Positions 1-39,877 of a DNA stretch of 64,000 bases are shown piece by piece. Both the position numbers and the translations under genes were made by a program. The notes beneath the pieces are model-generated. The model was not told the DNA's origin. It was given only the letters and a program-made list of their open reading frames with translations, and made no database searches. Numbering within the stretch: position 1 is the stretch's first letter; every line of letters starts with the position of its first letter. Source of the DNA: an uncultured Candidatus Saccharibacteria bacterium (lineage in GTDB: Bacteria; Patescibacteriota; Minisyncoccia; Phycocordibacterales; UBA918); contig CAYGJY010000001.1 of assembly GCA_964350645.1 (NCBI GenBank), forward strand, positions 78,316 through 142,315. The letters are read 5' to 3'.

Positions 1-3000
1 TATGTCACCTCAGTCAGCGAGCGGGGTATCACGTGGTATTTCAAAGAACCCGCACTTGTCGGTCGCTACATCACAGGAGACTATTGGGTTATGGGGCCAG
101 TTGAAGTGACTCGCATTACACCGGATGCCGGTAATGATATGCATGGATGGATGGTGAATCCGCTTGATGATAAAAAGCAAGCCTTTCATAGCTCTACCCG
201 TAGTACTCAAAAAAATACTTATGATCGAACGCTCATGCCGAGTCTGCCGTACACGGCTAATCCAGGAGATTCATTGATTAAGGCTATTACTAATTCCAAT
301 GACCAACGATTCCGCACCGATTATGCATCGGTACTCACAGTAGTAGATATTGTGCCGCCAAGTGATGCGTTTCGTCCAGCGTACGCAGGTACAAAAAAAG
401 ATACGTACCGTGTGAGCGAATTACGTACCAATTTGTTGCCGAGCGCCGTCCCGTCCTCGATTAATGTACCTTCATGGTCTGAGGTGGAGGGGTACTTTAA
501 CAATGGTCCCTGGATTGATTTCATAACGAGTCACCCGGGTGAGATTGTACACCCGTCATTCCAGATGGGACGATATGGTGGTACTTTACAATTCCAAACT
601 AGCAATGCCATTTTGCGACTGATGATGAATGACCCACTTGCTCAAAAGCTCCCAACCCTACAGTGGGTGGTGCAGTATGCGATTGATCTTGAAGCAATGA
701 TGCTTGAGACTGGTACGGATTTTCCGCCAAACGGCGGCCACGCTGGCGGGAGAAAACTTCCACTTACTCTCGCTGCAGTACTCTTGGACGACCCTGAGAT
801 GACTGCGTTAGTGAAAGACGCTCCAAAAGATCAATTCAATGAAAATGGTAAACATCTTTTTAGTCAAAAAGCCAATAATGGGCAAGGGATAGTGTTGATG
901 GGTGATGCAACTGATAAGGGCAACGAATCACAGTATTGGACTCTAGTTGAGACTGGAAATGGTTTTCGTACCGCAGCTGATCCATATGGATATATTGATG
1001 GGAGTGTACAACCAATTGAAAGTTATCTCTTGGTGTTGAATGTGGCGCCATGGAAAGCGTCAGTGATTGCGTTGCAGCTAATGCCATCACTGAAGCCGGT
1101 CTGGAACGATGAAGATTTTGTGACTGTCACGAAGCGCTATGTGAGCGGTGGACAGTGGACCCAGCCGGACCCGTGTGCGCCAGTCGAGCGAGATGCTCAA
1201 GGAAAGGCAGTGGCTGCAAACAGAGGTGTGACCTATGGGCCAGATGGTCAGGGAGGTTGTATTCTTGATACTGATCCGAGCGACGGAATTGGACGCTTCC
1301 CAAATTTGCACCTAAGTGATCCAGACGCAGCTAGTAAGCGAAAAACCCCGTACGATATACCATTTGCTGATGCTCTCTGGCCAATGTACATAAATGTGAA
1401 TCCAAATGATGTACCAAACACTGAGGCGTTACCAGCCCCAACCGAACCAGCTGCTCCGAGTGCACCGGCCACTAATGGTGCGCTTGGTATCGACCCTATC
1501 CTCCGCGATAAACATATCTTTGATCGTGGCCTCGCTCGGGGTGAGAATAGCGCTACCATTCCACTCTCAGGTACTGCTCCAGCCGGTGCGGTGATTGAAG
1601 CCCGGACTGTCGAAGTCTCTGGTAGTCGCGCCAGCACACCATGGCGTGTGATCGCTACCGCTGGTAATGACGGCCGCTTTGCGGGTACGTACACCCGTGG
1701 TCGTTCGACCGAATACCTCCGCGCCGAAGCGCGCGTACAAGGCACAACCGCTACGGTAGCAACTACCAATACCTTTGGTGTCGGGACGACGATTGCGTTG
1801 CATGGGCAGAGTAATGAAGTGCACTGGATTAAATTTACCGGATTACCAACCGAAGTTGTTATAGATGATGACGCGGTACAGTTTGTGGATATTGCCAGGC
1901 AGTCGGGTGGTCCTGCTGGAGCTGATGCGGTTAAGGTGCGAATGGTGACTAATACAGAACCGCTCGCAACACCAGGAATTAAAGCCTTCGCGAATGCTCT
2001 TATTAGTGGAGTGCCAGGCGAGAAATTTATAGTGAAGTTTGCAACGGTATCTGGTTCAGGTATTCAAGATGAGGTGCAGGATAGAACTGATAGTACTGAA
2101 AGCCCTGTTAGATTTTGGGCTGATGAAGTAGATTTGCATCGTGCGTTTGATCCATATTTTACAGCGGGTCAAACATCGAAGACAGGTTTATTGCTGTGGG
2201 CATATACCAGTGCAAGCAACAACAGTGATATGGAGGCAGATTATGTACCAATGATGCTCGGAATTAAACGCAACGGTACCCCAACTGGCAGTGAGTACGA
2301 TCATACACTAGCCGAGATGTATGACTGGAGTCATACCAAGCTTGGTTTTATTCCGTATGTAGACTCAATCGCGCAAACAACCTCAATACAGAATTTGCCT
2401 GAGAATACAAACTACGCACCGTTTTTGGCAACGCCACACATTGGTTTAAGTCGGTATGGTATTCAACATGGTGAACTCAGAAATGGTGTCTATACCGACT
2501 TAACCCACCCTGGTATTGAACACATGGATGGCACTACACGAGCTGGTCGTACTACCGCTTTTTCCGCGCTGATGATGTTGGGGGCGGTAGATGTGAGTGA
2601 GAATACCTGGGATAAGGTTGTAATTGAGTGGGGTCCAACTGTGAACGGGGTAAAGCGAAGTGATGTAATTCGTATCTCAAAGCCAGAGCACAACTTTACG
2701 ACGTTGCGGCGAGCTAGAGGAGAAACTCGTCTTACTCCTGATGGTACCTGGCGCGATGGCGACGTGTATGGATTTTGGCAAGGAACTGTGCCATTACAAA
2801 AAGCCCAGATTCGTGACCGCGCTGGAAATATTGCTGATAAAGGAGATGTTTGGTTGTTTAAAAATGACGGCTCAGCTTGGACAGCCAATGACCGCGCTAG
2901 TTATGCTCCGCTGACGAGTCGATCGATACGAATTGTTAATCCGGATGACTTCATTGACGTATTTACGTCATCGAATCTTCAGGTCGCTAATTCGTTTCCA

Positions 3001-4674
3001 AAACTGTTGACGGTACCGATGATGGGGATTGCTCAAAGTAATTTGTTGGAAAACAAAGTTGGTCAAAGTAGTAGTGGGCCGGCGCCTTTGCCAACAAATC
3101 CAACTCAACCAACACCAACCCCAACCGAACCCGCTCCTGTAGTCGAACCAGTCACCCCAACCCCAACCCAACCAACACCTGTTACCGCCACCGTCGCCGC
3201 CGGCGATCGCATCCGGGTAACCGAACGTGTCAACGTCCGCGATCCGTACGGCACCAACAGTCCAAGTATTGGTCTTCAAGAAGTGGGTGCCCTGGGTACT
3301 GTCCTCACCATTGCCCCGCAATCAGCTAATGGCTTTACTTGGGTACCGGTTAACTTCGATAGTGGCGCTGATGGCTGGGTAGCTGAGAGCTTTGTGGGTA
3401 AGGTGACGATTGCACCAACACCAGCACCAACCCCAACACCGACCCCAACCACTCCAGTCACTAACCAAGAAGCTGAAAACAACAACCCGAGCGAACCTGC
3501 CCCAACCCTCTCCGACCGTCGCAAAACCGTCACCAACGCCGAGCTACGCGACAAAGTCCGCGAACACCGTCTCGAGCTTGCTCGCCAGGCCACCAAGATC
3601 ACCAAGTTCTTGAATCGTCGTGAGAGTGAATTGAAGCGTGACACTCGCTTCACCTATCCACTTGGACTCTACGACTTCGCTGCCGAAGTAGAACCAGGTA
3701 GTACTGAGACGGTCACTATCACCTTGGATGCACTCTTTGACACTAGCGACTGGGAGTACCGCAAATATAATGGCACTACCGACCGATACACCGACATCTC
3801 AGACCAAGTCACCTACGGCACCACGAACCTCAATGGCACCGACGTGACTACCATCACCTACGAGATTGAAGACAACGGCCCCCTTGATACCGATGATCGC
3901 CTCGGCTTCATTGCTGACCCGGCTGGTCCAGCCTTACCAGAAGGTGAGGAGGTGGTGATTGAAGAAGAAATTACTACTAATAACAGTGGCGGCTCTTCTG
4001 GCGGCGGTGGCGGTTCACGGAGTTCTTCAAGCGGCGGTAGTTCATCAGCAAATTCAAACACTACCAGCGTGAATTCATCTACTGGAGATATCTCTCTCGT
4101 CTCTGCCAACATCTCATTCAATCAGCCAAGTATTAACACCCCAACTGCCGTTAACAATGTGTTGCGTTTCCTCAATACGTTTGAAGGCGAGAACCTTCCA
4201 CTTGATGGTAGCTACGACGTCACCGACAATGCAGCCGTGCAACGCTTCCAACTGAAGTACAAAAAAGAAATCCTCGACATCTGGAATCTGACCGAAGCCA
4301 CCGGCTACGTTGGTATTACGACACGTCTTAAAATGAACTTCCTCATCAAGGGAGCGACCGCCGAGTGTCCGGCTTTCGTGGAATACAACGGTGGACTCTC
4401 AGGCATCATGTTCTCACCTGAGATTGGCAAGACGCAAACGATCCTCAAAGATCTGGGTATGTATCGTGGAGGAATCAATAACACTTGGGATGCTAGCACT
4501 AATCAAGCGCTGATTACCTTCCAAGAAACCTTCCGCGAAGTGATGCTCGACCCGTGGAATATCACAGAAGGTACCGGCTACAAGTACAAGACGACCAACT
4601 TATTCCTCAACTACTTTGCTGGGTGTGATACAGGAGCAGTGGAGTTAGAGGGCGTGGGGCGGTTTGAGATTTAG
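1..4674 (+). CDS. Giant secreted cell-surface protein, 5'-truncated at the window edge; SASA/SGNH-like esterase-like core, SH3b-like domain, Gly/Ser linker, tandem PG_binding_1-like C-terminal domains
   Basis: The frame is open from nt 1, so the listed ATG at 91 is internal. It is paralogous to the downstream 2148-aa ORF over about 550 aa ('ALHGQSN' motif, TLRRARGE..TPDGTWRDGDV). It has an SH3b-like 'AGDRIRV..VNVRDP..GWVAE' region. The C-terminus carries two 'DxxxTxxAVxxFQ' PG-binding-like motifs. About 1527 aa lie within the window. Confidence 0.8.
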   Translation, partial: YVTSVSERGITWYFKEPALVGRYITGDYWVMGPVEVTRITPDAGNDMHGWMVNPLDDKKQAFHSSTRSTQKNTYDRTLMPSLPYTANPGDSLIKAITNSNDQRFRTDYASVLTVVDIVPPSDAFRPAYAGTKKDTYRVSELRTNLLPSAVPSSINVPSWSEVEGYFNNGPWIDFITSHPGEIVHPSFQMGRYGGTLQFQTSNAILRLMMNDPLAQKLPTLQWVVQYAIDLEAMMLETGTDFPPNGGHAGGRKLPLTLAAVLLDDPEMTALVKDAPKDQFNENGKHLFSQKANNGQGIVLMGDATDKGNESQYWTLVETGNGFRTAADPYGYIDGSVQPIESYLLVLNVAPWKASVIALQLMPSLKPVWNDEDFVTVTKRYVSGGQWTQPDPCAPVERDAQGKAVAANRGVTYGPDGQGGCILDTDPSDGIGRFPNLHLSDPDAASKRKTPYDIPFADALWPMYINVNPNDVPNTEALPAPTEPAAPSAPATNGALGIDPILRDKHIFDRGLARGENSATIPLSGTAPAGAVIEARTVEVSGSRASTPWRVIATAGNDGRFAGTYTRGRSTEYLRAEARVQGTTATVATTNTFGVGTTIALHGQSNEVHWIKFTGLPTEVVIDDDAVQFVDIARQSGGPAGADAVKVRMVTNTEPLATPGIKAFANALISGVPGEKFIVKFATVSGSGIQDEVQDRTDSTESPVRFWADEVDLHRAFDPYFTAGQTSKTGLLLWAYTSASNNSDMEADYVPMMLGIKRNGTPTGSEYDHTLAEMYDWSHTKLGFIPYVDSIAQTTSIQNLPENTNYAPFLATPHIGLSRYGIQHGELRNGVYTDLTHPGIEHMDGTTRAGRTTAFSALMMLGAVDVSENTWDKVVIEWGPTVNGVKRSDVIRISKPEHNFTTLRRARGETRLTPDGTWRDGDVYGFWQGTVPLQKAQIRDRAGNIADKGDVWLFKNDGSAWTANDRASYAPLTSRSIRIVNPDDFIDVFTSSNLQVANSFPKLLTVPMMGIAQSNLLENKVGQSSSGPAPLPTNPTQPTPTPTEPAPVVEPVTPTPTQPTPVTATVAAGDRIRVTERVNVRDPYGTNSPSIGLQEVGALGTVLTIAPQSANGFTWVPVNFDSGADGWVAESFVGKVTIAPTPAPTPTPTPTTPVTNQEAENNNPSEPAPTLSDRRKTVTNAELRDKVREHRLELARQATKITKFLNRRESELKRDTRFTYPLGLYDFAAEVEPGSTETVTITLDALFDTSDWEYRKYNGTTDRYTDISDQVTYGTTNLNGTDVTTITYEIEDNGPLDTDDRLGFIADPAGPALPEGEEVVIEEEITTNNSGGSSGGGGGSRSSSSGGSSSANSNTTSVNSSTGDISLVSANISFNQPSINTPTAVNNVLRFLNTFEGENLPLDGSYDVTDNAAVQRFQLKYKKEILDIWNLTEATGYVGITTRLKMNFLIKGATAECPAFVEYNGGLSGIMFSPEIGKTQTILKDLGMYRGGINNTWDASTNQALITFQETFREVMLDPWNITEGTGYKYKTTNLFLNYFAGCDTGAVELEGVGRFEI
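4095..4673 (+). repeat. 579-bp perfect direct repeat, copy 1 (3' end of giant ORF 1)
   Basis: Nucleotide-identical to 10563..11141 by manual alignment. The identical 64-aa antisense ORFs at 4305..4499 and 10773..10967 independently confirm identity. The copies diverge exactly at the last base of the stop codon (TAG vs TAA). Confidence 0.85.
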
Positions 4675-4695
4675 AAAAATAATAATGCATTACTT

Positions 4696-7600
4696 ATGAG
4701 TATCACAAGACATATCTACAAGAAAACAGCGATCACCATTCTCGTGATGAGTTTTGTGTGTTCGGCATTCATTTCTCAACCAGCACAGGCTACCAACCTC
4801 ACCGACCTCCGCGTAGCCCTCGACCAGCTCGAACAAACCTTGCTACAACTCCAGCAGCAATTGCAATTAGCCTCTGTGCCACGAGCTGGGCAGGTGTTGG
4901 GTTCACGTGTCTCTGACACACTTCTCCTTGATGTAGCCTTTTCGCCGAGCGGGATTACTGATCGTTCGAGCTATGGAGCACCAGTGAATCTTAACAGTGG
5001 ATCAGCTCTCGATGTACAAGAAGGCCTGGATGGATACGTCTACAATCTGACAGGCGTCAGTGATTTTCAAATCCCGCGTACAGCAGAGATGCAGCTGTAT
5101 GATCATGAAGAGGTGAGTTATGTTTTTACGGTAAAAAATGATGAACCAACAAAATTTAGAACCGGCGAATTATTCGGTATCCTTCGTTCACAACAGGTCT
5201 TTGTAAAAGATGAAATCACCTACTCACACCAAAGTAGTGACGGTAGTACCTACACCATTCGTTCGTCTGGTGCATCGATTGGAGATCGAGCGTGGCACCA
5301 CGTGGTGATCACAATGAATTCTCTGGAAGAACGAGCGGCTATTTATGTGGATGGAGAAAAAGTGGGTGAAGGGATCGCCAAAGGCAAAACGAAAGGAATG
5401 CAAAGCTGGGGGTTACATTTGGGTAACCCATTTGGTGAAAACTTCAATGGTTTGATCGGTGAATTCCAAATGCACTCCATCGCTCTCTCTGAAAGTGAAA
5501 TTCAAAATCGTGCCGCTGCGTTTGCTGCTAAGGTGGGCAACAGTCCTCAACCAACACCAGACCCAACACCAGACCCAACTCCCGAGCCAGAACCAGTGGC
5601 TGATCCTGTCCCTACGACACCAACCCCTGAACCAGAAACCACTCCGGTTACTACTGAAGCACCAGCGGCTCCCAGCGCCCCAGCTACCAACGGTACACTT
5701 GGCATTGATCCAATTTTGCGTGACAAGCATATCTTCGACCGCGGTCTGGCTCGCGGGCAAAATAGCGCTGACATCCCACTCTCTGGCACGGCACCAGCTG
5801 GATCAGTAGTTGAAGTGCGAACGGTCGAAGTCTCTGGTAGTCGCGCTACCTCACCATGGCGTGTCATTGCGACCGCCGACACCAGTGGCCGTTGGCAAGG
5901 TGCCTATACGCGTGGTCGCTCGAGTGAATACCTCCGCGCTGAAGCCCGGGTGCGCGGCACATCCGGCACAGTTGCGACCGTCAACACCTTTGGGGTGGGG
6001 ACGACCATTGCTTTGCATGGGCAGAGTAGTGACTACCACTGGATTGCGTTTGCTGGTACACCGATGGAAAACGTGATCGATGATAGTGCGATGCAGATAG
6101 TCGAGATTAATCGCGCCTCGGATCCGGCAGATAGCACCACAAGTGTCACAGCAGTTACAAATGCTTGGAAAAATGCGCAGCGTGATTTTGGAAACGATGT
6201 CATTAATCGATCCGGTGTTGTTGCGTTTGCGAATATGCTCATGCAGGGTATTCCAGGTGAAAAATTCTTGGTTAAGTTTGCTGCTGTCTCGGGGACAGGG
6301 ATTCACAGTGAGTTTGAAAACAGTTCTGACTCGCGTCGTAGGTGGCCAGACGAGATGCGTCTCCATAAAGCCTTCGATCCCTATTTTGTTGAGGGTCAGA
6401 AAATGTCCGACACAGGTTTAGTGGCGTGGGTATATTCCTCATCCAACAATCATATTCGATTTGAAACCTCGTATGGACCAATGATTTTTGGTAAATTTCC
6501 TGATGGTCGACCAGTGGTAACCGGCTCGAGTGAATATCCATACGCCCATACGTGGGCAGAATTTTATGACTGGGAACAGAGTCGATTAGGAGTTGGATTT
6601 AATGCTCGCGCTCAAGGAATGAATGCTGCTCGAATGACAGAAAATCCTAATTATAGTCGTCACTTAGCGCCGAATGTTCTAGGACTAAATCGGTTTACAC
6701 AACAAGCCGGGGAATTACGAAGAGGAGTATATATTGATCGTGGTCATCCAGGACAAGAGCATCCAGATGGTACCGTACGAGCAGCTCGTATGGCAGCCTA
6801 TGGTTTGTTGATGCATATGAAGCAAGTGCCAGCCCACGACCTACGACCGTTTGTAGGTGCTGCTATTGAATGGGCTCCAACCTTAAATGGAGTGGCTCGT
6901 CCCGATGCTGTATTGATCACTAATCAAAATCGAGATTACACGACCCTGCGGCGTGCCCGAGGTGAAGCGCGCTTTACACCCGATGGCACCTGGCGAGATG
7001 GTGACGTGACGCACTTCATGATCAATGGGGAGATGGCTCGTAATGTGCGTATTGTTGATGATCAAGGTAACTTGGCGGATAAAGGTAATATCATAATCTT
7101 AAAAAACGATCGATCACATTGGACTACTAGTGATACGCTCACGTTTGGTCTTGAGGTGGCTAGATATGATTGGGAAAACCCCAAAGATCTTGCTGATGAT
7201 GTTCATAAAGATTTGTTGGCAATACCAACAGATTTTCCTCTCATGTGGGTACTTCCAGTGACTGCTCATGATCCAGCGAGTAGCTTTTTCACTAATAAAA
7301 TTGGTCAAGCAAATTCTGTCACTGAATCAGAAGCGGCTGTAGTGACCCCAGGAGTAAACACCAACATAAGTTCACCGACAGTAGACGCTCCTGCTCCCGC
7401 AACTGCAATCGCTACTGCTGGCGATCGGGTGCGAGTCGAACAGAACGTCAACGTGCGTGATCCATTTGGACTGGCTGGTACTCTTATGGGTGTGCAACCA
7501 ATCGGTGCAATGGGGACCGTACTCAACATTGCTCCGCAAACAGCTGATGGGTACACGTGGATCCCGGTTAATTTTGATAGCGGTGTTGATGGCTGGGTAG

Positions 7601-10600
7601 CTGATGCGTTTGTTGAAGTAACCGATGATACTCCTGTCGCGTCACCTGCACCTGCGCCTGCACCAACGGAAACGAACACGCCAACAGATGTACAAACTAG
7701 TTCTACGCCAGTACCGAGTGATGCGATTGTTGTCACAGATAGTGCCTCGCTCAACGCTGCGTTGCGAGCAGCACAAGGCGGAGAGGTGATTGCATTGCAG
7801 CCAAACGCGTCCGGGTATACCTATCGCTCACCATTTCGGCGCGATCTGCAAACCTATGCTGCACCGGTCACTGTCACCAGCGCAGATAAAAATAACCCGG
7901 CGCGTATCAAGCAATTTACCCTCGCACAAGACGGCAACATCGTGCTTGATGGTCTGCATTTTGAAGTGGCGCCTGGTGAGCTTGGTAATCGCGCCGTGTT
8001 ATTACAACTAAGTAGTGTGAAAGATATCGTCGTAAAGAATTCTACCTTTGACGCCGGTGCACCAGGCTTCGCAGAAACTCGGGCTGAGCTTGATGCTACC
8101 GCGGGAGGTATTCAGATCCGGGTAGGTGAGAATGTAACCATTGAAAATAATACTGTTACCCGCGCGTCCTTTGGGATATCGATTTTTGGTTCTGGCGATC
8201 AGCCGTATAACAAAAATATTATTGTGAAGAACAATGATATCAATCGCTTCTTAGGCGATGGTATACGAATCGTTAATTTCGATGGGGTATTGGTAGAGGG
8301 CAATACGATCCACACAGTATTTGGTACACCACAATCAGTAAACCACACCGACGTCATTCAGGTGTTTAGTGCCAGCCTCACGAAGCCGTCGAAGAATCTC
8401 ACCATCAGCAATAACTTCCTTAACCCGGGTGCAGGAGAAGGTTCGCAGCTTATCTTCATGCGAAACGAAGCTGTCGATACTGGTGGAGGCGGAGAGCCAA
8501 TGTATTACCAAAACTTCCGCTTTGAAGACAACGTAATTTATGGTCAGCATATTCACGGTATTACCCTGGGAGAATCTAATGGGGTAGTGATAAAAAACAA
8601 TACCTTGCTGTATAACCAAGCGCCCGGCACCTTCGGGGCACCACGTATTTTTGTAAGTACTAAATCAAAGAATGTGGTAGTAGATAAAAATATCGCCCAC
8701 AGTGTGCAGGCTGAGTGGGGTGGCGACAATCTAACTGTCCAACGGGGTTCATTAAATCAAGCAAACTACTATGGTGATCTCTTCGTGAATGCGCTTGGTG
8801 GCACCGAGCTTACCCTGCCTGATTTACGGGCTCTACCGGGTAGTATTATCATGGAGCGAGGCTATGGTGCTGCCGAAACCCGGAAGACTGGTTTTGATTC
8901 GCTCACCGCATTATTTAAAGCTAGTCCGGCTACGAACGATCGTTACGCCATTCAGTTTGATGGTGGTTTGTCGGCTGATGCCAGTGGTGCACTTGGCACC
9001 ACCGCTACCTATCGTTGGGACTTTGGTGACGGCAGAACGGAGACAGGACGAACGGTGACGCATCGGTACGAAACACACGGTACGTATAACGTAACGCTTC
9101 GAGTGACAAAAAATGGACGCACCGACAGTGTGACACAAAACGTGAAAATTGTTGATCCACTACTCGTGAAGCTTGATTTCTCAGACGAGCTGCAAGACGA
9201 ATCGAGTTATGACAGTAGCATTATCGGTGATACGGGAAACTTATTGTCTGGCTTAGATGACCAAGTCTTCAGAACTAAAACCGGTGAACTACTGGAAATC
9301 TCGCGTGGCAACGGACATATCTTTAATCACCAAGAACTATCCTTTGAGTATTGGGTTAAGCCAGAAATACTCAGCAATTGGTTTATGCGCTTACATACCG
9401 CGTTAACCGGTTCATATGGTTCAAATGGATCAATCAATATGGTGCTTACCGATAGGGCTGGTGCCAACCACTCAATTTCTAGCCCTGCTGGAGTGATTGA
9501 AGCGGGTGAGTGGCAACACATTGTGTTTACGTACTCGACCATCACTAACACGATCAGGCTGTATGTAAACGGTACCAAGGTAGCTGAAAGGCCGGCCGGT
9601 GGTCTCACCAAAGGGCCGCAGTCGTGGGGTCTCGTGCTCGGTAGTAGTTTTGGTAGCTCACAAACAGCGGATATTGGATACTTTGAGCTCCGAAGTGATG
9701 AACTGTCAGCGACTGACGTAGCGCGACGCTACAACGCCTTTGCGACGTTGACTGAAAACGATGCGGTAGCAGTGCCAGTGGAACGACCAGTGGATGTGAC
9801 GCCGGAGTTTACGGAAACACCACCCGTCATTATTAATCCAACCACTCCAGCCCGTCCAACTCCAACGGTCCCAACGGTCCCAAGAAACCCAACTTCACCG
9901 GTGTCTAACGACGCGGCGGAGGATACGGAGGTCGTGGTCTCAGCTCCGCTTACCGACCGCCTCAAAACCGTCATCAACGCCGAGTTGCGTGATAAGGTCC
10001 GCGAGAATCGCTTAGAGTTCGCTCGAGTACAAACTAAGATCACCAAGTTCTTAAATCGCCGCGAGAGTGAACTCAAGCGTGATACACGCTTTAGCTACCC
10101 ACTCGGACTCTACGACTTCGCCGCTGAAGTCGAGCCAGGCAGTACCGAAACTGTCACCATCACTCTGGACGCGCTCTTTGAAACTAGTGACTGGACGTAC
10201 CGCAAATACAACCCCATCACTGACCGCTACACTGACATCTCGGATGAAGTGACCTACGGCACCGTCACCAGCAATGGGGAGACAGTCACCGCTATTACCT
10301 ACGAGATTGAAGATAATGGTCCACTCGATACCGACGACCGCTTAGGCTTCATTGCTGACCCAGCTGGTCCAGCACTACCTAATGGCGAAGAAGTGGTGAT
10401 CGAAGAAACAGAAGAAGTGGATGAAACTGAAGACACGATAGTGACGAGTACCAATGGTGGTCGTTCGTCATCACGTGATGATGAGGATAAAGAGGACGAA
10501 CAAGGTGCAGTCGCGACAACTGAAAGTACACCCCGTACTAATCCAGCAAGTACTACCATTCTTCTCGTCTCTGCCAACATCTCATTCAATCAGCCAAGTA

Positions 10601-11142
10601 TTAACACCCCAACTGCCGTTAACAATGTGTTGCGTTTCCTCAATACGTTTGAAGGCGAGAACCTTCCACTTGATGGTAGCTACGACGTCACCGACAATGC
10701 AGCCGTGCAACGCTTCCAACTGAAGTACAAAAAAGAAATCCTCGACATCTGGAATCTGACCGAAGCCACCGGCTACGTTGGTATTACGACACGTCTTAAA
10801 ATGAACTTCCTCATCAAGGGAGCGACCGCCGAGTGTCCGGCTTTCGTGGAATACAACGGTGGACTCTCAGGCATCATGTTCTCACCTGAGATTGGCAAGA
10901 CGCAAACGATCCTCAAAGATCTGGGTATGTATCGTGGAGGAATCAATAACACTTGGGATGCTAGCACTAATCAAGCGCTGATTACCTTCCAAGAAACCTT
11001 CCGCGAAGTGATGCTCGACCCGTGGAATATCACAGAAGGTACCGGCTACAAGTACAAGACGACCAACTTATTCCTCAACTACTTTGCTGGGTGTGATACA
11101 GGAGCAGTGGAGTTAGAGGGCGTGGGGCGGTTTGAGATTTAA
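4696..11142 (+). CDS. Giant (2148 aa) secreted multidomain surface protein: signal peptide, LamG/ConA-like lectin, SASA/SGNH-like esterase-like core, SH3b-like, parallel beta-helix (PbH1) repeats, PKD domain, second LamG-like, conserved unknown domain, acidic linker, tandem PG-binding-like C-terminus
   Basis: N-terminal signal peptide (MSITRHIYKKTAITILVMSFVCSAFISQPAQA). LamG-like motifs 'WHHVVIT..IYVDGEKV' and 'WQHIVFTY..LYVNGTKV'. 'ALHGQSS' and 'DGDVTHF' esterase-like motifs. Beta-helix repeats 'NNTVTRASFGISIFG..IVKNNDINRF..VEGNTIH'. PKD signature 'YRWDFGDGRTETGRTVTHRYETHGTYNVTLRV'. C-terminus identical to the upstream ORF. Only 21 nt separate it from the upstream ORF, suggesting co-transcription. 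Confidence 0.85.
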   Translation: MSITRHIYKKTAITILVMSFVCSAFISQPAQATNLTDLRVALDQLEQTLLQLQQQLQLASVPRAGQVLGSRVSDTLLLDVAFSPSGITDRSSYGAPVNLNSGSALDVQEGLDGYVYNLTGVSDFQIPRTAEMQLYDHEEVSYVFTVKNDEPTKFRTGELFGILRSQQVFVKDEITYSHQSSDGSTYTIRSSGASIGDRAWHHVVITMNSLEERAAIYVDGEKVGEGIAKGKTKGMQSWGLHLGNPFGENFNGLIGEFQMHSIALSESEIQNRAAAFAAKVGNSPQPTPDPTPDPTPEPEPVADPVPTTPTPEPETTPVTTEAPAAPSAPATNGTLGIDPILRDKHIFDRGLARGQNSADIPLSGTAPAGSVVEVRTVEVSGSRATSPWRVIATADTSGRWQGAYTRGRSSEYLRAEARVRGTSGTVATVNTFGVGTTIALHGQSSDYHWIAFAGTPMENVIDDSAMQIVEINRASDPADSTTSVTAVTNAWKNAQRDFGNDVINRSGVVAFANMLMQGIPGEKFLVKFAAVSGTGIHSEFENSSDSRRRWPDEMRLHKAFDPYFVEGQKMSDTGLVAWVYSSSNNHIRFETSYGPMIFGKFPDGRPVVTGSSEYPYAHTWAEFYDWEQSRLGVGFNARAQGMNAARMTENPNYSRHLAPNVLGLNRFTQQAGELRRGVYIDRGHPGQEHPDGTVRAARMAAYGLLMHMKQVPAHDLRPFVGAAIEWAPTLNGVARPDAVLITNQNRDYTTLRRARGEARFTPDGTWRDGDVTHFMINGEMARNVRIVDDQGNLADKGNIIILKNDRSHWTTSDTLTFGLEVARYDWENPKDLADDVHKDLLAIPTDFPLMWVLPVTAHDPASSFFTNKIGQANSVTESEAAVVTPGVNTNISSPTVDAPAPATAIATAGDRVRVEQNVNVRDPFGLAGTLMGVQPIGAMGTVLNIAPQTADGYTWIPVNFDSGVDGWVADAFVEVTDDTPVASPAPAPAPTETNTPTDVQTSSTPVPSDAIVVTDSASLNAALRAAQGGEVIALQPNASGYTYRSPFRRDLQTYAAPVTVTSADKNNPARIKQFTLAQDGNIVLDGLHFEVAPGELGNRAVLLQLSSVKDIVVKNSTFDAGAPGFAETRAELDATAGGIQIRVGENVTIENNTVTRASFGISIFGSGDQPYNKNIIVKNNDINRFLGDGIRIVNFDGVLVEGNTIHTVFGTPQSVNHTDVIQVFSASLTKPSKNLTISNNFLNPGAGEGSQLIFMRNEAVDTGGGGEPMYYQNFRFEDNVIYGQHIHGITLGESNGVVIKNNTLLYNQAPGTFGAPRIFVSTKSKNVVVDKNIAHSVQAEWGGDNLTVQRGSLNQANYYGDLFVNALGGTELTLPDLRALPGSIIMERGYGAAETRKTGFDSLTALFKASPATNDRYAIQFDGGLSADASGALGTTATYRWDFGDGRTETGRTVTHRYETHGTYNVTLRVTKNGRTDSVTQNVKIVDPLLVKLDFSDELQDESSYDSSIIGDTGNLLSGLDDQVFRTKTGELLEISRGNGHIFNHQELSFEYWVKPEILSNWFMRLHTALTGSYGSNGSINMVLTDRAGANHSISSPAGVIEAGEWQHIVFTYSTITNTIRLYVNGTKVAERPAGGLTKGPQSWGLVLGSSFGSSQTADIGYFELRSDELSATDVARRYNAFATLTENDAVAVPVERPVDVTPEFTETPPVIINPTTPARPTPTVPTVPRNPTSPVSNDAAEDTEVVVSAPLTDRLKTVINAELRDKVRENRLEFARVQTKITKFLNRRESELKRDTRFSYPLGLYDFAAEVEPGSTETVTITLDALFETSDWTYRKYNPITDRYTDISDEVTYGTVTSNGETVTAITYEIEDNGPLDTDDRLGFIADPAGPALPNGEEVVIEETEEVDETEDTIVTSTNGGRSSSRDDEDKEDEQGAVATTESTPRTNPASTTILLVSANISFNQPSINTPTAVNNVLRFLNTFEGENLPLDGSYDVTDNAAVQRFQLKYKKEILDIWNLTEATGYVGITTRLKMNFLIKGATAECPAFVEYNGGLSGIMFSPEIGKTQTILKDLGMYRGGINNTWDASTNQALITFQETFREVMLDPWNITEGTGYKYKTTNLFLNYFAGCDTGAVELEGVGRFEI
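10563..11141 (+). repeat. 579-bp perfect direct repeat, copy 2 (3' end of giant ORF 2)
   Basis: See copy 1; the offset is 6468 bp. Confidence 0.85.
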
Positions 11143-11168: not shown

Positions 11169-11191
11169 AAAACCACCGCAAGGTGGTTTTT
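11169..11191 (+). terminator. Intrinsic terminator after giant ORF 2
   Basis: aaaaccacc-gca-aggtggtttt hairpin followed by a T-run. Confidence 0.6.
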
Positions 11192-11305
11192 GATTTGTGT
11201 GTAATCCACAGAATTGATTTGATACTACGATTGGGCTACTAATATAAGCTATACTATATATAATAAAGCTAAAATATTAGCCAATTACCAATTTAGTGTA
11301 TTGTT

Positions 11306-12016
11306 ATGAGTTACGAACGACTAGCTAGAATCATCAGGGGCTCACTGTATGAGTCGTTGATTGTATTTGCACTCATAACAATCGGTTTTATGTTCCTCGA
11401 AGCAGGTATCAGTCGGGCCCAGTTGTTCGATGAATTTACCGTCACACAATCAATCACAGGTGAAGTTTCTTTCCAAACTAATGAAAATGACGTTGCTATG
11501 AGCACTGCAATTGCTGGTGTGACCGGTGGTCGGGCTACGGGAACAACAGTAGCAGTTGTCACGACCAACAGTGCCACTGGTTATACTATTGATATTGATT
11601 TTTCAGATACCCCAGCAATGAATCGAAATGGTAGTGGTGGAGCTGATTTTATTAGCAATTACACGCCGGCAGGAACGACCTCGCCGACAGTAAGCTTTGC
11701 TATTGGTGGTTCTGGTACAGCTGGTGAATTTGGCTATACCGTTGCAGCATCAACTAGTTATCATGTTGCACCTGAATTTAGAGGTAATGGTACAACTCTT
11801 TGTAACACTGGGGCAGGAGGAGTATTTACTGTAGATCAGTGTTGGCAAGCACCAAGTACTATTGCACGTGAAATTATTAACTCCACTTCCTCAACACCAG
11901 CGAACGGCGCCACAACGACGGTGAAGTTTGTCGTAGCAGTGCCAAGCTCTCCGAATCCGGCCTTACCAACTGGAGACTACGTAGCAACTGTCACGTTGAC
12001 TGCAGCTACCCAATAG
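11306..12016 (+). CDS. Secreted/surface protein of unknown function (N-terminal TM/signal, Thr/Gly/Ala-rich); paralog of 13136..13885
   Basis: N-terminal hydrophobic segment. The C-terminus '..PTGDYVATVTLTAATQ' resembles '..PGDYVATTTLTLLSL' of the paralog. First gene of a four-gene envelope cluster. Confidence 0.65.
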   Translation: MSYERLARIIRGSLYESLIVFALITIGFMFLEAGISRAQLFDEFTVTQSITGEVSFQTNENDVAMSTAIAGVTGGRATGTTVAVVTTNSATGYTIDIDFSDTPAMNRNGSGGADFISNYTPAGTTSPTVSFAIGGSGTAGEFGYTVAASTSYHVAPEFRGNGTTLCNTGAGGVFTVDQCWQAPSTIAREIINSTSSTPANGATTTVKFVVAVPSSPNPALPTGDYVATVTLTAATQ

Positions 12017-12024
12017 CTTAGACT

Positions 12025-13125
12025 TTGGTGGTAATGGCTTCTGTGCAATTTTATTTTATTAAGCAGTCACTTTGCATAAGTGGTGCACTGATTGGGTTAG
12101 TTGCCCTCGGGGCACCTTTTTTGTTTGCTGAGGCTCAGGTAAATGAGATTGCAGTCGAATCGGCTACAGCAACAGACATGTCTGCGAGTTCGCCAGCCAG
12201 AAGTTTTGATCCAGCTGACTTCGGTATTTCGGTCGAGACGCTACCAAACGCTAGTGATGTGATTGGAGATTTTGTAGTTGGACCAGGTAAGTTTGAGACG
12301 GCGTTGCAACCAGGTGAGTCAGTCACTACTGAGATATTAATTTCAAATCGCACAGGTATTGATCGCCGATTTAATATTGAGATTGAGGATGCCGCTGGTT
12401 CAGTTGATGGCTCTGATTCGATTGTGTTGCTTGGAGATGACCGGGGGCCATACTCTATAAAAGATTATATTGATGCACCAACGTTATCTTTTGATTTACG
12501 ACATGGAAAGCGTGCTCGTGTACCCGTTACTATCACAGTGCCGCCAGATGCTGAGCCAGGAGGTCTGTATGGTAGCGTCCTAATCAATACTGTTTCGGTT
12601 CCGATAGAGCAGGAAATTCAGGCTGGACAGGCTGCTGTTCGTTCACCAATTGTACAGCGAATCGGGGTACTGATGTTTGTCACAGTACCAGGTGATTCTA
12701 TCTATGAGGGGGGGCTTAAGGATTTCAGGATTATTCCTGAGAAAAAGTGGTTTAATGATGGGCCGTTCAATTTTTTAATTACATACGAAAATACTGGTTT
12801 GAGTCACTTGAACCCGTATGGTGAAATTCGGATTACTAATACACTTGGGGAAGAGGTTGGCTTCGTTGAATTACAGCCTTGGTTTGCCTTACCGCAGTCG
12901 GTCCGCATTAGGGAAGTAACCTGGAATCGTAGTATGCTGTATGGTAAGTATACGGCAACTATATCTCTTAACCGTGGTTACGAAGACATAGTCGACGAAT
13001 TGGCATACAGTTTTTGGGTTATTCCATGGAAGCCAGTAGCAGGAGGTTTTGCGCTGGTGTTTGTACTGTTATTTTTATTACGTAGTTTCTTTAAGAAATT
13101 TGAATTTAAACGTAAAGATTCATAA
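12025..13125 (+). CDS. Cell-surface protein with N-terminal signal and C-terminal TM anchor plus basic tail (DUF916-like architecture)
   Basis: Signal-like N-terminus. C-terminus 'WKPVAGGFALVFVLLFLLRSFFKKFEFKRKDS'. The architecture resembles the membrane-anchored component of Gram-positive WxL-type surface clusters; this is analogy only. Confidence 0.6.
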   Translation: MVVMASVQFYFIKQSLCISGALIGLVALGAPFLFAEAQVNEIAVESATATDMSASSPARSFDPADFGISVETLPNASDVIGDFVVGPGKFETALQPGESVTTEILISNRTGIDRRFNIEIEDAAGSVDGSDSIVLLGDDRGPYSIKDYIDAPTLSFDLRHGKRARVPVTITVPPDAEPGGLYGSVLINTVSVPIEQEIQAGQAAVRSPIVQRIGVLMFVTVPGDSIYEGGLKDFRIIPEKKWFNDGPFNFLITYENTGLSHLNPYGEIRITNTLGEEVGFVELQPWFALPQSVRIREVTWNRSMLYGKYTATISLNRGYEDIVDELAYSFWVIPWKPVAGGFALVFVLLFLLRSFFKKFEFKRKDS

Positions 13126-13135
13126 CCGCAGACCT

Positions 13136-13885
13136 ATGAAGCGGATGTTCATTAGTACAATTGTTTGTTTGACGATTATAACTGGCTTGCATGGTGCAGA
13201 GGCACAAGTTCGGAGCAGTTCAAATTATCAAATTCAAAGTGACAGCGTTAATTTTGCTGGTGGCCGTTCGACGTCAACTAATTATGTGCAAGAATCAACG
13301 GCTGGGGAGGTAGGTACTGGTGAATCAACCAGTTCCTCGTATGTGTTAAGAGCAGGATATCAGCAGATGCAGGAGGTATTTTTATCCTTAGCCGGTGGAG
13401 CTGATGTAACCATGAGTCCGAATATTCCAGGTATTACTGGGGGTGAATCAAATGGCTCGACAACGGTAACAGCCCTCACTGATAGCCCGTCAGGGTATCA
13501 GCTCACTATTGAAGCGTCAGCGAGCCCAGCGATGGTAAGTGGGGCAAATACAATAGCCGATTATGTTCCAGTGGGAGTTGTGCCAGATCTTCTCTTTACG
13601 ACAGCAGGAGCTGATGCTCATTTTGCGTTTTCTCCTTTTGGTAGTGACGTGGTGACTCGGTTCCAGACTGACGGATTAGATTGTGGAGTATCAGGTTCTG
13701 CATCGACGACTGCTTGTTGGGACGGGCTGTCTACGACAGCAGCCGTGATTGCTTCAAGTATTTCAGCCAATCAGCCAACCGGTTCCGACACTACGATATA
13801 CTATAGAGTAGGGGTTGGTGGTTCAGCGAATCAAGCTCCAGGTGACTATGTGGCCACCACCACCCTGACACTTTTGTCATTATGA
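13136..13885 (+). CDS. Secreted/surface protein, paralog of 11306..12016
   Basis: I chose the ATG at 13136 (MKRMFISTIVCLTIITGLHGAEAQ signal peptide) rather than the track's overlapping upstream start. The C-terminal motif is shared with the paralog. Confidence 0.65.
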   Translation: MKRMFISTIVCLTIITGLHGAEAQVRSSSNYQIQSDSVNFAGGRSTSTNYVQESTAGEVGTGESTSSSYVLRAGYQQMQEVFLSLAGGADVTMSPNIPGITGGESNGSTTVTALTDSPSGYQLTIEASASPAMVSGANTIADYVPVGVVPDLLFTTAGADAHFAFSPFGSDVVTRFQTDGLDCGVSGSASTTACWDGLSTTAAVIASSISANQPTGSDTTIYYRVGVGGSANQAPGDYVATTTLTLLSL

Positions 13886-15489
13886 TTAGAGCGTGCGTAG
13901 GCACAGTATGTAGTTTTATTTGTTTGGCTTTTGTATTGCCAGGGAGTCTTTTTGCGGCAACTGATGATTCGTTTACGGTAACACAAACTATCAATACCCT
14001 TGATCCAGTGCCGCCAACTACTCCTTTGAATTTCACTGTGGTGCCAGTAACGAGTAGTCAAATCAATTTAGATTGGGATCCGTCGTCAGATAATATTGGC
14101 GTTGATGGCTATCAGGTGTTTCGAGATAGTGTTCAGATTGCTACTACTAGTGCTACAGCCTATTTTGATACAGGCCTTACTCCCAGCACAACGTACGCAT
14201 ATAATGTAATTGCGTTTGACGTGGCGCGTAATTTTTCAACTTCAACCGCAGTGTTGTCGACAACGACACTGCCTTTTATAGCAACGACTACGTCACCGAC
14301 GGCTACCAGTACTGGAGGAGTGAGTGGCTATTATCTTCCTGATATTGAACTTATTGATATACGCAGTCAGTCGAGTGAGGATTCGATTGCTCTTGAATTT
14401 ACCACTAATAGATATGCTCGTTTCACTATCAGGTGGGGCCGGACGAATAGCTATGAACTCGGGTATACCGGTACAGATGTATTTCAAAAAGAACACCGGA
14501 CTTTTATTGATTCACTGACACCCGGTACCACGTATCAGATTGAGATCATTTTGCTAGATGAATTTGGTTTGTCACAGTTGCGGTATCAAACCGAAATTAT
14601 CACAAAACCAAGACCGGACGACCAGCCGCCAGCGAACGTAAGTGGGTTGACCGTCTTTGATTTGGATGAAGTGTTACAACTTACTTGGCAAAACCCGCCG
14701 TTAGATGATTTTGCTAAGGTGCGCGTTTTAAGTAATGATTATTTTTATCCGATTCACAGTGCGGATGGCTGGTTAGTATATGACGGTACAGGTGAGACAG
14801 TAATTGATCGACGATCATTAGCTTCAGGAGCCACTCGCTATTACACTGTTTTTGTATATGACACCGTAGGTAATATTTCTTCTGGTGCAATTGTGGCAGT
14901 TACGAGAGATGAAAATGGAGCAGTGACAATCTCTACTTCATTTCCAACTATCACCCTGACACCAATTGATGACATATCGCCAGCGGTGCAAGCTATTTTA
15001 GAGCAGCTACAGTTTGCTGATGTGATTTTCATGCAGGATGGGAGTGAGCAACTAGTAGATCATAATCGCATACAACTTTCAGGTTCGCGCGAGACGTTAG
15101 TCCGTCTGGCGTACGATAAAGTACCAGAACACTTAAAAACTATTATGGTGACGTTGCGTGATCCTGATGATGAGAATGCACTTTTCTCTTTCTTGTTGAG
15201 AATAAACCAAGACAAAAGTTATTATGAGGCTCGAGTAGGGGCTTTAGAAAAAGCTGGTGTGTATGATGTGACTGTGACTGTGATTGATTTTAAGACTAGT
15301 GCACTAGCGAATCTTGAAGGAGAGATTGAGGTAGTTATTTCTGAAGGGGGTATCAGTTCAGGTAGCGGTATTCGGCCGACAACGTGGTTGATGCAGCTGC
15401 TGCCACTGGTTGGATTAAGCTTACTATTATTGCTGATCACATTACTTATTATTAAGCGCCGGTATACTGCTGAGGATAAAGGTCTTTAG
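13882..15489 (+). CDS. Surface protein with fibronectin type III domain(s), C-terminal TM and possible LPxxG-like sorting signal
   Basis: Signal peptide. FN3 hallmark 'PPTTPLNFTVVPVTSSQINLDWDPS..GYQVFRD..TTYAYNVIAFD'. C-terminus 'LLPLVGLSLLLLLITLLIIKRRYTAEDKGL'. Confidence 0.7.
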   Translation: MIRACVGTVCSFICLAFVLPGSLFAATDDSFTVTQTINTLDPVPPTTPLNFTVVPVTSSQINLDWDPSSDNIGVDGYQVFRDSVQIATTSATAYFDTGLTPSTTYAYNVIAFDVARNFSTSTAVLSTTTLPFIATTTSPTATSTGGVSGYYLPDIELIDIRSQSSEDSIALEFTTNRYARFTIRWGRTNSYELGYTGTDVFQKEHRTFIDSLTPGTTYQIEIILLDEFGLSQLRYQTEIITKPRPDDQPPANVSGLTVFDLDEVLQLTWQNPPLDDFAKVRVLSNDYFYPIHSADGWLVYDGTGETVIDRRSLASGATRYYTVFVYDTVGNISSGAIVAVTRDENGAVTISTSFPTITLTPIDDISPAVQAILEQLQFADVIFMQDGSEQLVDHNRIQLSGSRETLVRLAYDKVPEHLKTIMVTLRDPDDENALFSFLLRINQDKSYYEARVGALEKAGVYDVTVTVIDFKTSALANLEGEIEVVISEGGISSGSGIRPTTWLMQLLPLVGLSLLLLLITLLIIKRRYTAEDKGL

Positions 15490-17755: not shown

Positions 17756-18658
17756 TTGTTACGTATGCACTACTTAAGCGCCAAAGACGTCAGTACTTTA
17801 GAGGTTAAAGCGAACGAAATCAGACAAAGCATCATTGAGATGCTGGTTGAAGCTGGTAGTGGGCACACGGCTGGTCCACTTGGTATGGCTGATGTGTTTG
17901 CGTTGCTGTATTTTGAAGTGTTAAAACACGATCCACAAAATCCAGACTGGGCAGAGCGCGATCGATTGGTTTTGTCGGCTGGGCATATCTGTCCAGTCTT
18001 ATATGCTGCGATGGCCCACTCAGGGTACTTCCCAGTTGAAGAATTACTAACACTTCGCAAATTGGGTTCACGCCTACAGGGACATCCACATCGTCAAGCA
18101 CTTCCGGGTATCGAAACTAGTTCTGGGCCACTTGGTAGTGGATTGTCCCAAGCAGTCGGTATGTCACTAGCAGAACGGATCGATAATCCATATTCCTCAA
18201 AATATATTTACTGTATTACTGGTGATGGTGAATGGAACGAAGGACAGATGTGGGAAGCTGCTATGTTGGCTGGTAAAGAAAGATTACATAATTTGATTGT
18301 CATTGTTGATCGTAACGGTATTCAGATCGATGGGTACACCAAAGACGTGATGCCGCTCGAGCCATTCCGGGAAAAACTAGAAGCCTTTAATTTTGATGTA
18401 CAAGAAGTTGATGGTCACAATATTAGAAGTATGAATGATGCAATCGGTAAAGCTCAGTCGGTGTACGGGCAGCCGTCGATTATTTTGGCACACACGATTC
18501 CGGCTAAAGGTGTGGATGTGTTTGAGCGAGATTTTCGCTGGCATGGTAACCCTCCGGGTAAAGGTCCAGAGGATCGAGTACCCAAGAGTGAACAAGCAAA
18601 AGTAGCTTTAGAAAAGTTGCGCAGTTTAAGTGGATCAATTGATCCTTCAGATTCATAG
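17756..18658 (+). CDS. tkt: Transketolase, N-terminal (TPP-binding) subunit
   Basis: 'AGSGHTAGPLGMADVFALLY' TPP motif; 300 aa split form. Confidence 0.9.
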   Translation: MLRMHYLSAKDVSTLEVKANEIRQSIIEMLVEAGSGHTAGPLGMADVFALLYFEVLKHDPQNPDWAERDRLVLSAGHICPVLYAAMAHSGYFPVEELLTLRKLGSRLQGHPHRQALPGIETSSGPLGSGLSQAVGMSLAERIDNPYSSKYIYCITGDGEWNEGQMWEAAMLAGKERLHNLIVIVDRNGIQIDGYTKDVMPLEPFREKLEAFNFDVQEVDGHNIRSMNDAIGKAQSVYGQPSIILAHTIPAKGVDVFERDFRWHGNPPGKGPEDRVPKSEQAKVALEKLRSLSGSIDPSDS

Positions 18659-18661
18659 ACT

Positions 18662-37698: not shown

Positions 37699-38215
37699 TG
37701 AACCGTAGCTAGTTTCGGTTGTACCTTTCTAAGCCCGCTCCTTAGGCTCAGAAACCAGTAACCCAAACTAAACAGAGATTAGGCAAGACTATTGACTTTT
37801 GTCAACTTTTCTGCTATGATTGTGGTCAATTCTGTTCTTGTGGCACACTGTACCTGGTTGCAGTAGATGTGCTCAGATCTCCTTATTTTACAACTCGATA
37901 GCCAGCTTAGTGCTCGGAAATCATCCGTGGATGATCCGAGGTTTCTTAGTACCAAGCTCGCTGCCGTGATGTTGCTCAGTGGAGTAACAGGCAGATGGAC
38001 GAACTGATCTTTGTCATTAAAGAACAGGTTATTGGAAACGGAAAAGACGGGGGCCAGTGTGCAGGGAAACTTGCCTTCTTGGCACACTGGCCCCCGTCTA
38101 CCTCCTCAACGGGTACCCGAAAGGGAATCCCGTGAGGGATCGGCTACGACTTTTGTTGTATTTGACTTCCACCCCGGCCGGCGCTTCGCGCCGGCCAAAC
38201 CGAAAGGACTAAGGC

Positions 38216-39031: not shown

Positions 39032-39127
39032 ACGGAGCTCTGCGGGCCGGAACATTCACCGGCCCGCAGCAGACTATTTGTTAAATCCTTGCATCAACCA
39101 CAACCAACAGCCAAGGGGTAAAAAACC

Positions 39128-39817: not shown

Positions 39818-39840
39818 GACCTGTTCTTCTCTGACTCAGG

Positions 39841-39877
39841 CGAAACTGGCCGCAGTGATGCACCCAGTTTCGCCCTT
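39841..39877 (+). terminator. Intrinsic terminator-like hairpin at the right edge of the high-GC island
   Basis: ggcgaaactgg ..14-nt loop.. ccagtttcgcc followed by cttct. Confidence 0.55.

Follow-up and report, generated by a model that had tools for sequence, protein, structure and literature searches.

Two tandem genes for giant, strain-variable modular proteins with a predicted CE20/SASA-like esterase module in an uncultured Candidatus Saccharibacteria bacterium

We analysed 64,000 nucleotides (nt) of a contig assigned to an uncultured Candidatus Saccharibacteria bacterium (GenBank CAYGJY010000001.1, positions 78,316 to 142,315 of the forward strand); this whole stretch is further referred to as the window. 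It begins with two open reading frames (ORFs), ORF1 and ORF2, which are neighbours on the same strand with 21 nt between them and encode giant multi-domain proteins. This study concerns the gene pair and, in particular, a core module common to both genes, whose predicted structure resembles carbohydrate esterases (CEs) of the CE20 and SASA types.

The gene pair and its domains

The features of the pair are listed below in window coordinates (+, forward strand; aa, amino acids).

1–4674, +: ORF1, the 3' 1557 codons of a 2549-aa gene with the 5' end beyond the window; stop codon TAG
1–1452, +: ORF1 aa 1–484, a separate uncharacterised domain (beta-sandwich and helical domain) with more than 261 homologues
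1471–3090, +: ORF1 core copy B, a CE20/SASA-like three-domain module, 49% identical to the ORF2 core
3178–3420, +: ORF1 SH3b-like segment; Pfam SH3_3, 26.1 bits, E 9.6e-6, profile positions 3–53 of 54
3646–3936, +: ORF1 choice-of-anchor U domain; NCBIfam NF041766, 44.4 bits
4095–4673, +: exact 579-nt direct repeat, copy 1, encoding the two PG_binding_1-like repeats of the ORF1 C-terminus
4696–11142, +: ORF2, complete, 2148 aa, with a signal-peptide-like N-terminus; stop codon TAA
4873–5565, +: ORF2 N-terminal LamG/ConA-like lectin domain; Pfam Laminin_G_3 (two stretches) and Laminin_G_2 (aa 174–244)
5668–7335, +: ORF2 core (aa 325–880), made of an N-terminal beta-sandwich, an SGNH domain and a C-terminal beta-rich domain
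7393–7650, +: ORF2 SH3b-like segment, paralogous to that of ORF1; Pfam SH3_3, 18.4 bits, E 0.0024
8017–8697, +: ORF2 right-handed parallel beta-helix; Pfam Beta_helix (E 9.2e-17) and NosD, NCBIfam para_beta_helix repeat
8929–9147, +: ORF2 PKD domain; Pfam PKD_4, E 1.3e-16; collagenase PKD domains in PDB, E 1e-10
9316–9723, +: ORF2 second LamG/ConA-like domain; Pfam Laminin_G_3, best stretch aa 1541–1676, 105 bits in total
10087–10377, +: ORF2 choice-of-anchor U domain; NCBIfam NF041766, 43.7 bits
10563–11141, +: exact 579-nt direct repeat, copy 2, encoding the two PG_binding_1-like repeats of the ORF2 C-terminus
11169–11200, +: terminator-like hairpin with a T-run, 3' of ORF2

When the frame of ORF1 is read back to window base 1, no in-frame stop is met, and thus ORF1 is cut by the window start. 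The missing part was supplied by a public protein, P0002 (2549 aa, encoded in a 464,680-bp NCBI contig), which is 100% identical to all 1557 windowed residues of ORF1 and contributes a signal peptide, a LamG domain and an extra copy of the core. P0002 begins with a signal peptide, a LamG domain, core copy A (aa ~310–895) and an SH3b-like segment; these are followed by the 484-aa domain, core copy B (aa 1477–2022), another SH3b-like segment, choice-of-anchor U and the two PG_binding_1-like repeats. ORF2, identical to public protein P0153, is organised as signal peptide, LamG, core, SH3b-like segment, parallel beta-helix, PKD, LamG, choice-of-anchor U and PG_binding_1-like repeats. The pair therefore contains three copies of the core: copy A of ORF1 upstream of the window, copy B of ORF1 inside it, and one in ORF2.

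An initial annotation, made from the letters of the window, described tandem paralogous genes 21 nt apart. The ORF map and BLASTP comparison agree with this: the core together with the SH3b-like segment is 49% identical between ORF1 and ORF2 over 694 aa, and the C-terminal 418 aa are 82% identical. The signal-peptide-like N-termini of ORF2 and P0002 likewise support its view of the products as secreted proteins. The size of 2148 aa that it gave for ORF2 stands, and its estimate of more than 1500 aa for ORF1 is extended to 2549 aa by P0002. A core of about 550 aa is indeed shared by both genes, with three copies rather than two. Domains absent from that annotation are the 484-aa family, the beta-helix of ORF2, the PKD domain, two LamG domains and choice-of-anchor U, and it did not mention the exact 579-nt repeat either. 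The position of the hairpin after ORF2, with none between the genes, suggests that ORF1 and ORF2 may be co-transcribed.

The domains at the C-termini were recognised with different reliability. Choice-of-anchor U passes the NF041766 cut-off of 32 bits in both proteins. The PG_binding_1 profile (PF01471, gathering cut-off 23 bits) scores 22.1 and 21.5 bits in the full-length proteins and 14.6 and 19.9 bits when the repeats are scanned singly (profile positions 3–41 of 57). It passes the cut-off only when the C-terminal 317 aa are scanned by themselves, with 28.1 bits over two stretches. A C-terminus of two PG_binding_1-like repeats, as proposed earlier, is hence retained as a borderline assignment. 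The gathering cut-off of SH3_3 (PF08239) is 27 bits, slightly above the score of the ORF1 segment, and searches of PDB sequences with the SH3b-like and PG-binding segments were uninformative.

Most homologues of the 484-aa domain of ORF1 are stand-alone hypothetical proteins of ~500 aa with conserved Cys residues; no Pfam match on the domain was found among the homologues. Its AlphaFold2 (AF2) model reached a predicted local distance difference test (pLDDT) score of 90.3. No significant fold match was obtained in PDB, and the weak ones were alpha/alpha-toroid polysaccharide lyases and glycoside hydrolases. Fusions of this domain to the esterase-like core also occur elsewhere, in P0008, P0014 and P0124.

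The 579-nt direct repeat comprises the last 193 codons of each gene and is 100% identical between them, whereas the DNA identity of ORF1 and ORF2 elsewhere is 73–78%. Compared with its copy in a sister strain (Logan ERR3534996), this segment shows only 94.7% identity, which indicates a probable recent gene conversion or duplication within the locus. An assembly artefact might also account for the repeat; against it, the repeat stops one base ahead of the differing stop codons (TAG in ORF1, TAA in ORF2) and the contig is 464 kb long. An exact repeat of this length is in itself a potential substrate for recombination or misassembly.

The locus is strain-variable. From window position 5661 onward the DNA of the sister strain is 98% identical to the window. 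ORF1 is absent from it, and its place is taken by an unrelated Gly_rich_2 protein of at least 3195 aa (window 1–5660 versus L017:1–10960). The first ~324 aa of ORF2, comprising the signal peptide, the first LamG domain and a linker, are 33–90% identical to the sister-strain protein at the amino acid level, and the remainder is 97–100% identical. The locus may be evolving through module shuffling combined with gene conversion.

The core module: sequence family, predicted fold and candidate catalytic residues

Relatives of the core were collected by an exhaustive HMMER search of 1.84 billion cluster representatives, as a word-indexed homologue search was insensitive to this family (1–2 matches). 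The search yielded 343 representative clusters with E ≤ 1e-3, and 165 of these also satisfied E ≤ 1e-30; relatives surfacing in metagenome scans were only ~28% identical. No Pfam match to SASA, GDSL or any CE family was obtained with the whole proteins (E ≤ 1), the isolated cores (E ≤ 10) or 54 relatives (E ≤ 0.01), and no NCBIfam model covers the core in ORF1, ORF2 or the 54 relatives. Three single-member matches were found in PHROGs with the 54 relatives and the local copies, none of them on the window's own core. A search of PDB sequences with a single core sequence retrieved no esterase, and the same search with the 54-member profile (E ≤ 10) retrieved no CE20 or SASA chain. Escherichia coli NanS searched against PDB sequences gave no CE20 sequence usable as a bridge to the core family. 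Membership in SASA, as proposed in the initial annotation, was therefore not upheld at the level of sequence profiles: PF03629 gave no match at any threshold tried. The core is nevertheless a genuine, previously unannotated protein family.

Longer members of the family contain F5/8 type C, CHB_HEX_C, fn3 and Big_5 domains, a T9SS sorting tail or a beta-helix as fusion partners. Besides, at least 36 of 155 members (P0005–P0155; L002–L016) have a short conserved N-terminal motif, M-x(0-6)-[ILVM]-G-[ILVFM]-[GSAN]-[ILVFM], with a Pro/Ala-rich linker after it. The proteins with this motif are mostly ~750 aa long and have no classical signal peptide, and the taxonomy is known for two Limimaricola members only. 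The motif may serve in export or attachment as a signal not recognised so far.

In contrast to the profile searches, structural comparison placed the core close to known enzymes. The AF2 model of the ORF2 core, built with the family alignment, has pLDDT 88.8 and a predicted template modelling score (pTM) of 0.91. In core numbering (core aa 1 is ORF2 aa 325), it consists of beta-strands at 21–103 forming an N-terminal beta-sandwich, an alpha/beta part at 108–395 and a beta-rich part at 398–530. The eight best Foldseek matches in PDB are all acetylesterases of the CE20/SASA type with probability 1.0. The first is XacXaeA/XAC1771 (7kmm; E 6.9e-12, 535 alignment columns), followed by mammalian sialic acid esterase (SIAE) from rabbit, guinea pig and dog (8f9r/q/o/p; E 6e-10 to 4e-9); the bacterial CE20 enzymes 9ega and 9h4u are also among the eight. 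The alignments to CE20/SASA structures cover ~520–700 columns, that is, the whole module. Beyond the best eight, E-values fall to ~1e-4 and the matches are unrelated structures, mostly with low TM-scores. Structure prediction and Foldseek thus agree with the SGNH/SASA-type fold that had been anticipated from a short motif.

That motif, 'IALHGQS', occupies aa 598–604 of ORF1 (window frame) and aa 438–444 of ORF2. In the alignment of 54 members (~25% identity), D24, G111, Q119, S120, D357, H360, G368 and T426 are invariant, and G209 and T210 are at least 90% conserved. In a larger alignment of 85 members, the conservation is 99% for the Ser, 99% for the His, 94% for the Asp and 98% for G209. The G-Q-S triplet as such is invariant in the former and 99% conserved in the latter, which supports the earlier assignment of its Ser as the predicted nucleophile; the residue after it varies, being S in ORF2 and E in the family consensus. 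The model places these residues in the context expected for SGNH hydrolases: Ser120 lies between strand 108–118 and helix 120–127, as in block I, G209 follows strand 200–206, as in block II, and D357-x-x-H360-P precedes helix 366–383, as in block V. Overall, blocks I (Ser), II (Gly) and V (DxxH) are 94–100% conserved, in canonical order and secondary-structure context. At the place of block III (Asn, GxND), after strand 251–255, only G250 and W254 are conserved, and N260/N261 of ORF2 are not in the family consensus; CE20 enzymes rely on the block I Gln in place of this Asn.

The D-x-x-H-P motif is found ~237 residues after the Ser of GQS, as 'DRGHP' in ORF2 and 'DLTHP' in ORF1. The Ser, Gly, Asp and His are kept in all three local copies, for which a motif scan gave the following candidate sites.

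ORF2 core, +: Ser444 at 6025–6027, SGTGI at 6289–6303, DRGHP at 6736–6750; candidate triad Ser 444, Asp 681, His 684
ORF1 copy B, +: Ser604 at 1810–1812, SGSGI at 2050–2064, DLTHP at 2497–2511; candidate triad Ser 604, Asp 833, His 836 (window-frame numbering)
ORF1 copy A, upstream of the window: candidate triad Ser 430, Asp 669, His 672 (P0002 numbering)

A different DxxH-like acid/base motif had been suggested before, namely 'DGDVTH' (ORF2 aa 768–773), which reads 'DGDVYG' in ORF1 (aa 919–924). It was ruled out as block V, given that its His (core 449) is replaced by Gly in 92% of family members and in ORF1; block V is the invariant D-x-x-H-P. The annotation of the catalytic motif of ORF2 is accordingly corrected to the predicted S444/D681/H684.

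Loci of relatives, interpretation and surroundings

In species-representative genomes the core family was found at 15 loci. All those with a taxonomic name are Rhodobacterales/Paracoccaceae (Litoreibacter and relatives), and three are labelled only Pseudomonadota or Alphaproteobacteria. The 77 neighbouring ORFs of these loci were scanned with Pfam. The neighbours include Wzy_C (11), Wzx-type flippases (6), polysaccharide pyruvyl transferase (4), Bac_transf (3), CapD-like proteins (Polysacc_synt_2; 3), hexapeptide acetyltransferases (3) and Beta_helix proteins (2), as well as GT2 and GT28 glycosyltransferases. The loci of the Rhodobacterales relatives are Wzx/Wzy surface-polysaccharide loci. 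At one Paracoccaceae locus (L004), a gene for a right-handed beta-helix protein (8840–10417) is located directly downstream of the core-family member, which mirrors the fusion of the core with a beta-helix in ORF2.

With moderate confidence, we read ORF1 and ORF2 as strain-variable, secreted, wall-anchored modular proteins in which a repeated Ser-His-Asp SGNH esterase, representing a new family related to CE20/SASA, would de-esterify surface polysaccharide. According to this reading, both proteins would be secreted by the Sec pathway and displayed as multi-domain molecules on the cell surface, probably attached to the wall by their common C-terminal module of choice-of-anchor U and two PG_binding_1-like repeats. 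The predicted nucleophile is Ser444 in the G-Q-S of ORF2, activated by His684 of D-x-x-H-P, which in turn would be oriented by Asp681; the oxyanion hole is predicted to be formed by Gln443 and the block II Gly533 of 'SGT'. The module would remove O-acyl, probably O-acetyl, groups from polysaccharide. The LamG and PKD domains, the beta-helix of ORF2 and the toroid-like domain of ORF1 may act jointly with the esterase modules to bind, deacetylate and possibly cleave a surface glycan, belonging either to a partner or host cell or to the organism itself.

Several observations weigh against this reading. By the profiles searched, the core has no sequence link to SASA, GDSL or any CE family, and an hhalign comparison of the core family profile with E. 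coli NanS was null. The template modelling (TM) scores of the ORF2 core against CE20 structures are 0.32–0.47 at 9–14% identity. The core family does not conserve the Asn/QGE motif of block III, and its block V is D-x-x-H-P rather than the D-x-H of CE20 or the dyad of SIAE. Lipases and O-acetyltransferases are likewise found among SGNH-fold proteins. Relatives sharing only ~28% identity, from a different phylum, supply the polysaccharide-locus context, and the scores of PG_binding_1 and SH3b are borderline. Four other explanations were weighed, and each of them fits the evidence less well than a surface-glycan esterase.

The cores could be non-catalytic pseudo-esterase lectins, the proteins being purely adhesins that attach the cell to the surface of a partner. 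The architecture is rich in LamG, PKD, SH3b-like and beta-helix domains of the adhesin type, strain variation of the locus is typical of adhesins, and block III lacks conservation. However, in a family of ~25% identity the Ser, His, Asp and Gln and the Gly of block II show no or almost no variation, also in the three local copies. Such a pattern is expected for catalysis rather than for binding alone, and we regard pure adhesins as unlikely.

Some SGNH-fold proteins act as transferases, and the core might accordingly be an extracytoplasmic O-acyltransferase, comparable to the SGNH domains of OatA, PatB and OafA, that decorates surface polysaccharide. The relatives are indeed located inside Wzx/Wzy biosynthesis loci, beside polymerases, flippases and modification enzymes. 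Yet no AT3/MBOAT acetyl-donor partner is fused to the core, and none was seen among the neighbouring genes here or among the 25 of 50 neighbour families listed for the relatives. The best fold matches are hydrolytic CE20/SASA esterases, whose oxyanion Gln and Gly are conserved in the core family, and in the giant proteins the module is paired with domains of degradative type. A transferase is for these reasons rather improbable.

We give about the same low weight to a peptidoglycan O-acetyl esterase, or an accessory enzyme of wall lysis, directed to host or self murein by the PG_binding and SH3b domains; O-acetylated peptidoglycan of the host was one of the targets suggested in the initial annotation. 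An SH3b-like segment follows immediately after each core and the C-termini have PG_binding_1-like repeats, but in ORF2 these repeats are 1100–1300 residues away from the core and adjoin the choice-of-anchor domain, so that a role in anchoring fits them. Moreover, the fold matches are glycan and sialate esterases, and the relatives are encoded beside Wzx/Wzy polysaccharide genes, not murein genes. By analogy, this context points to surface polysaccharides rather than peptidoglycan as the likely substrate.

Finally, a GDSL-type lipase or phospholipase acting on partner membrane lipids is very improbable: many members of the SGNH superfamily are lipases, and viral structures matching the core include phage proteins annotated 'GDSL-like lipase/acylhydrolase', but the flanking beta-sandwiches and the best matches are specific to carbohydrate esterases, and both the partner domains and the genomic context of the relatives are carbohydrate-related.

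If the predicted activity of the surface-glycan esterase is true, the core constitutes a new carbohydrate-esterase family, structurally near CE20/SASA and invisible to current profile libraries. It would have hundreds of members, the examined ones occurring in surface-polysaccharide loci of marine Rhodobacterales. ORF1 and ORF2, as two strain-variable giant proteins that unite lectin domains and three esterase modules with a beta-helix and a further uncharacterised domain, are also candidate molecules for engaging the envelope of another cell, a largely unanswered question for epibiotic ultrasmall bacteria, if the genome belongs to one. A bolder extension, which we consider doubtful, is that the proteins are wall-anchored 'glycan-stripping' machines of an ultrasmall epibiont. 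Esterases and possible depolymerases (the beta-helix and the toroid-like domain) would then be carried on a stalk of 2000–2500 residues and would deacetylate and open the surface polysaccharide of the host like a cellular analogue of a phage tailspike, with the host range set by cassette exchange.

Other genes of the window also encode surface proteins. Four consecutive secreted or membrane-anchored proteins are encoded at 11306–15489 and are kept in the sister strain. Two of them are ~240 aa long and WxL-like, with a common C-terminal 'GDYVATxTLT' motif; of the other two, one has a weak WxLIP_PGBD match and a C-terminal transmembrane segment, and one has an fn3 domain and a C-terminal transmembrane segment. 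This region may be a locus of a cell-surface complex. A sortase gene is located at 36943–37698 (Pfam Sortase, E 1.5e-18), and the large ORFs beside it that lack Pfam matches might encode its substrates. The sortase and the nearby WxL-like and fn3 surface proteins together suggest a Gram-positive-type cell wall.

At ~38050–39850 there is an island of ~1.8 kb with a guanine-cytosine (GC) content of 55–70% versus ~46% in the genome. It contains ORFs on both strands with no Pfam matches and may represent foreign DNA or coding sequence of an unusual kind. It is followed at 39944–43453 by an ORF of 1169 aa, also with no Pfam matches, with a Gly-rich 27-nt repeat at 40112–40164. The N- and C-terminal parts of transketolase are encoded by separate genes, SMC has only 759 aa and PheT only 645 aa (17756–19648 and 54057–56336), and a type IV pilin is also encoded. 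The short SMC, the split transketolase, the pilin and the sortase are consistent with a reduced genome of Gram-positive type, not proof of affiliation with the Candidate Phyla Radiation (CPR).

Comparison with known esterases and phage proteins

Ape, PatB and the C-terminal domain of OatA are extracytoplasmic SGNH enzymes with a Ser-His-Asp triad that act on acetyl groups of envelope glycans. The core is similar to these peptidoglycan O-acetyl esterases and transferases in its extracytoplasmic setting, the SGNH Ser-His-Asp arrangement predicted for it and the acetyl groups of envelope glycans as its probable target. In contrast to the core, they have no flanking beta-sandwiches, and they are not among its fold matches. 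Their murein-related role also differs from the setting of the core relatives, which are found in Wzx/Wzy polysaccharide loci and not beside murein genes.

Phage receptor-binding proteins resemble the core at the fold level. Among viral predicted structures (BFVD), it is similar to a PKD/chitinase protein of an Alteromonas phage, a protein of Rhodobacter phage RcapNL, the tail fibre of Salmonella phage Vi06 and phage proteins annotated as GDSL/SGNH. In Vi phages, an acetyl-esterase domain of a tail protein targets the capsule. The Vi-phage tail fibres and GDSL/SGNH tailspikes thus offer a parallel of an esterase on a long surface appendage engaging the polysaccharide of another cell. The difference is that ORF1 and ORF2 are chromosomal, among housekeeping genes, and no sequence relatives of the core family were found in IMG/VR viral contigs or GenBank phages. 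A phage or gene transfer agent (GTA) origin of the core was ruled out on the latter grounds. Two Rhodobacteraceae plasmids encode core-family members, annotated as 'hypothetical protein'.

The SASA family (PF03629), which includes mammalian SIAE and E. coli NanS, has in common with the core the SGNH fold and the GQS nucleophile motif, SIAE being the second-best fold match. It differs in that the core has no match to PF03629 and in that SIAE uses a Ser-His dyad, whereas in the core family an invariant Asp stands three residues ahead of the His.

The closest structural analogues are the CE20 enzymes (XacXaeA/XAC1771, Fl8CE20_II and PpCE20_II). According to the CE20 literature, their central SGNH domain is flanked by N- and C-terminal beta-sandwiches, block I is GQSNM, the oxyanion hole is formed by the block I Gln and the block II Gly, and the D-x-H of block V takes part in a water-mediated triad. 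The ORF2 core has its best structural matches among these proteins and the same order of beta-sandwich, SGNH domain and beta-sandwich; the core family has G-Q-S in block I, and this Gln and the Gly of block II could form an oxyanion hole. It differs from CE20 in its low identity and the absence of a detected sequence-profile relationship, and in its consensus, GQSE versus GQSNM; further, the X448 ancillary insertion was not identified in the core, and three copies of the core are built into a pair of proteins with 2148 and 2549 aa. The core family combines a new sequence family and a known fold with probably known chemistry, in the unusual setting of three copies in a pair of giant proteins.

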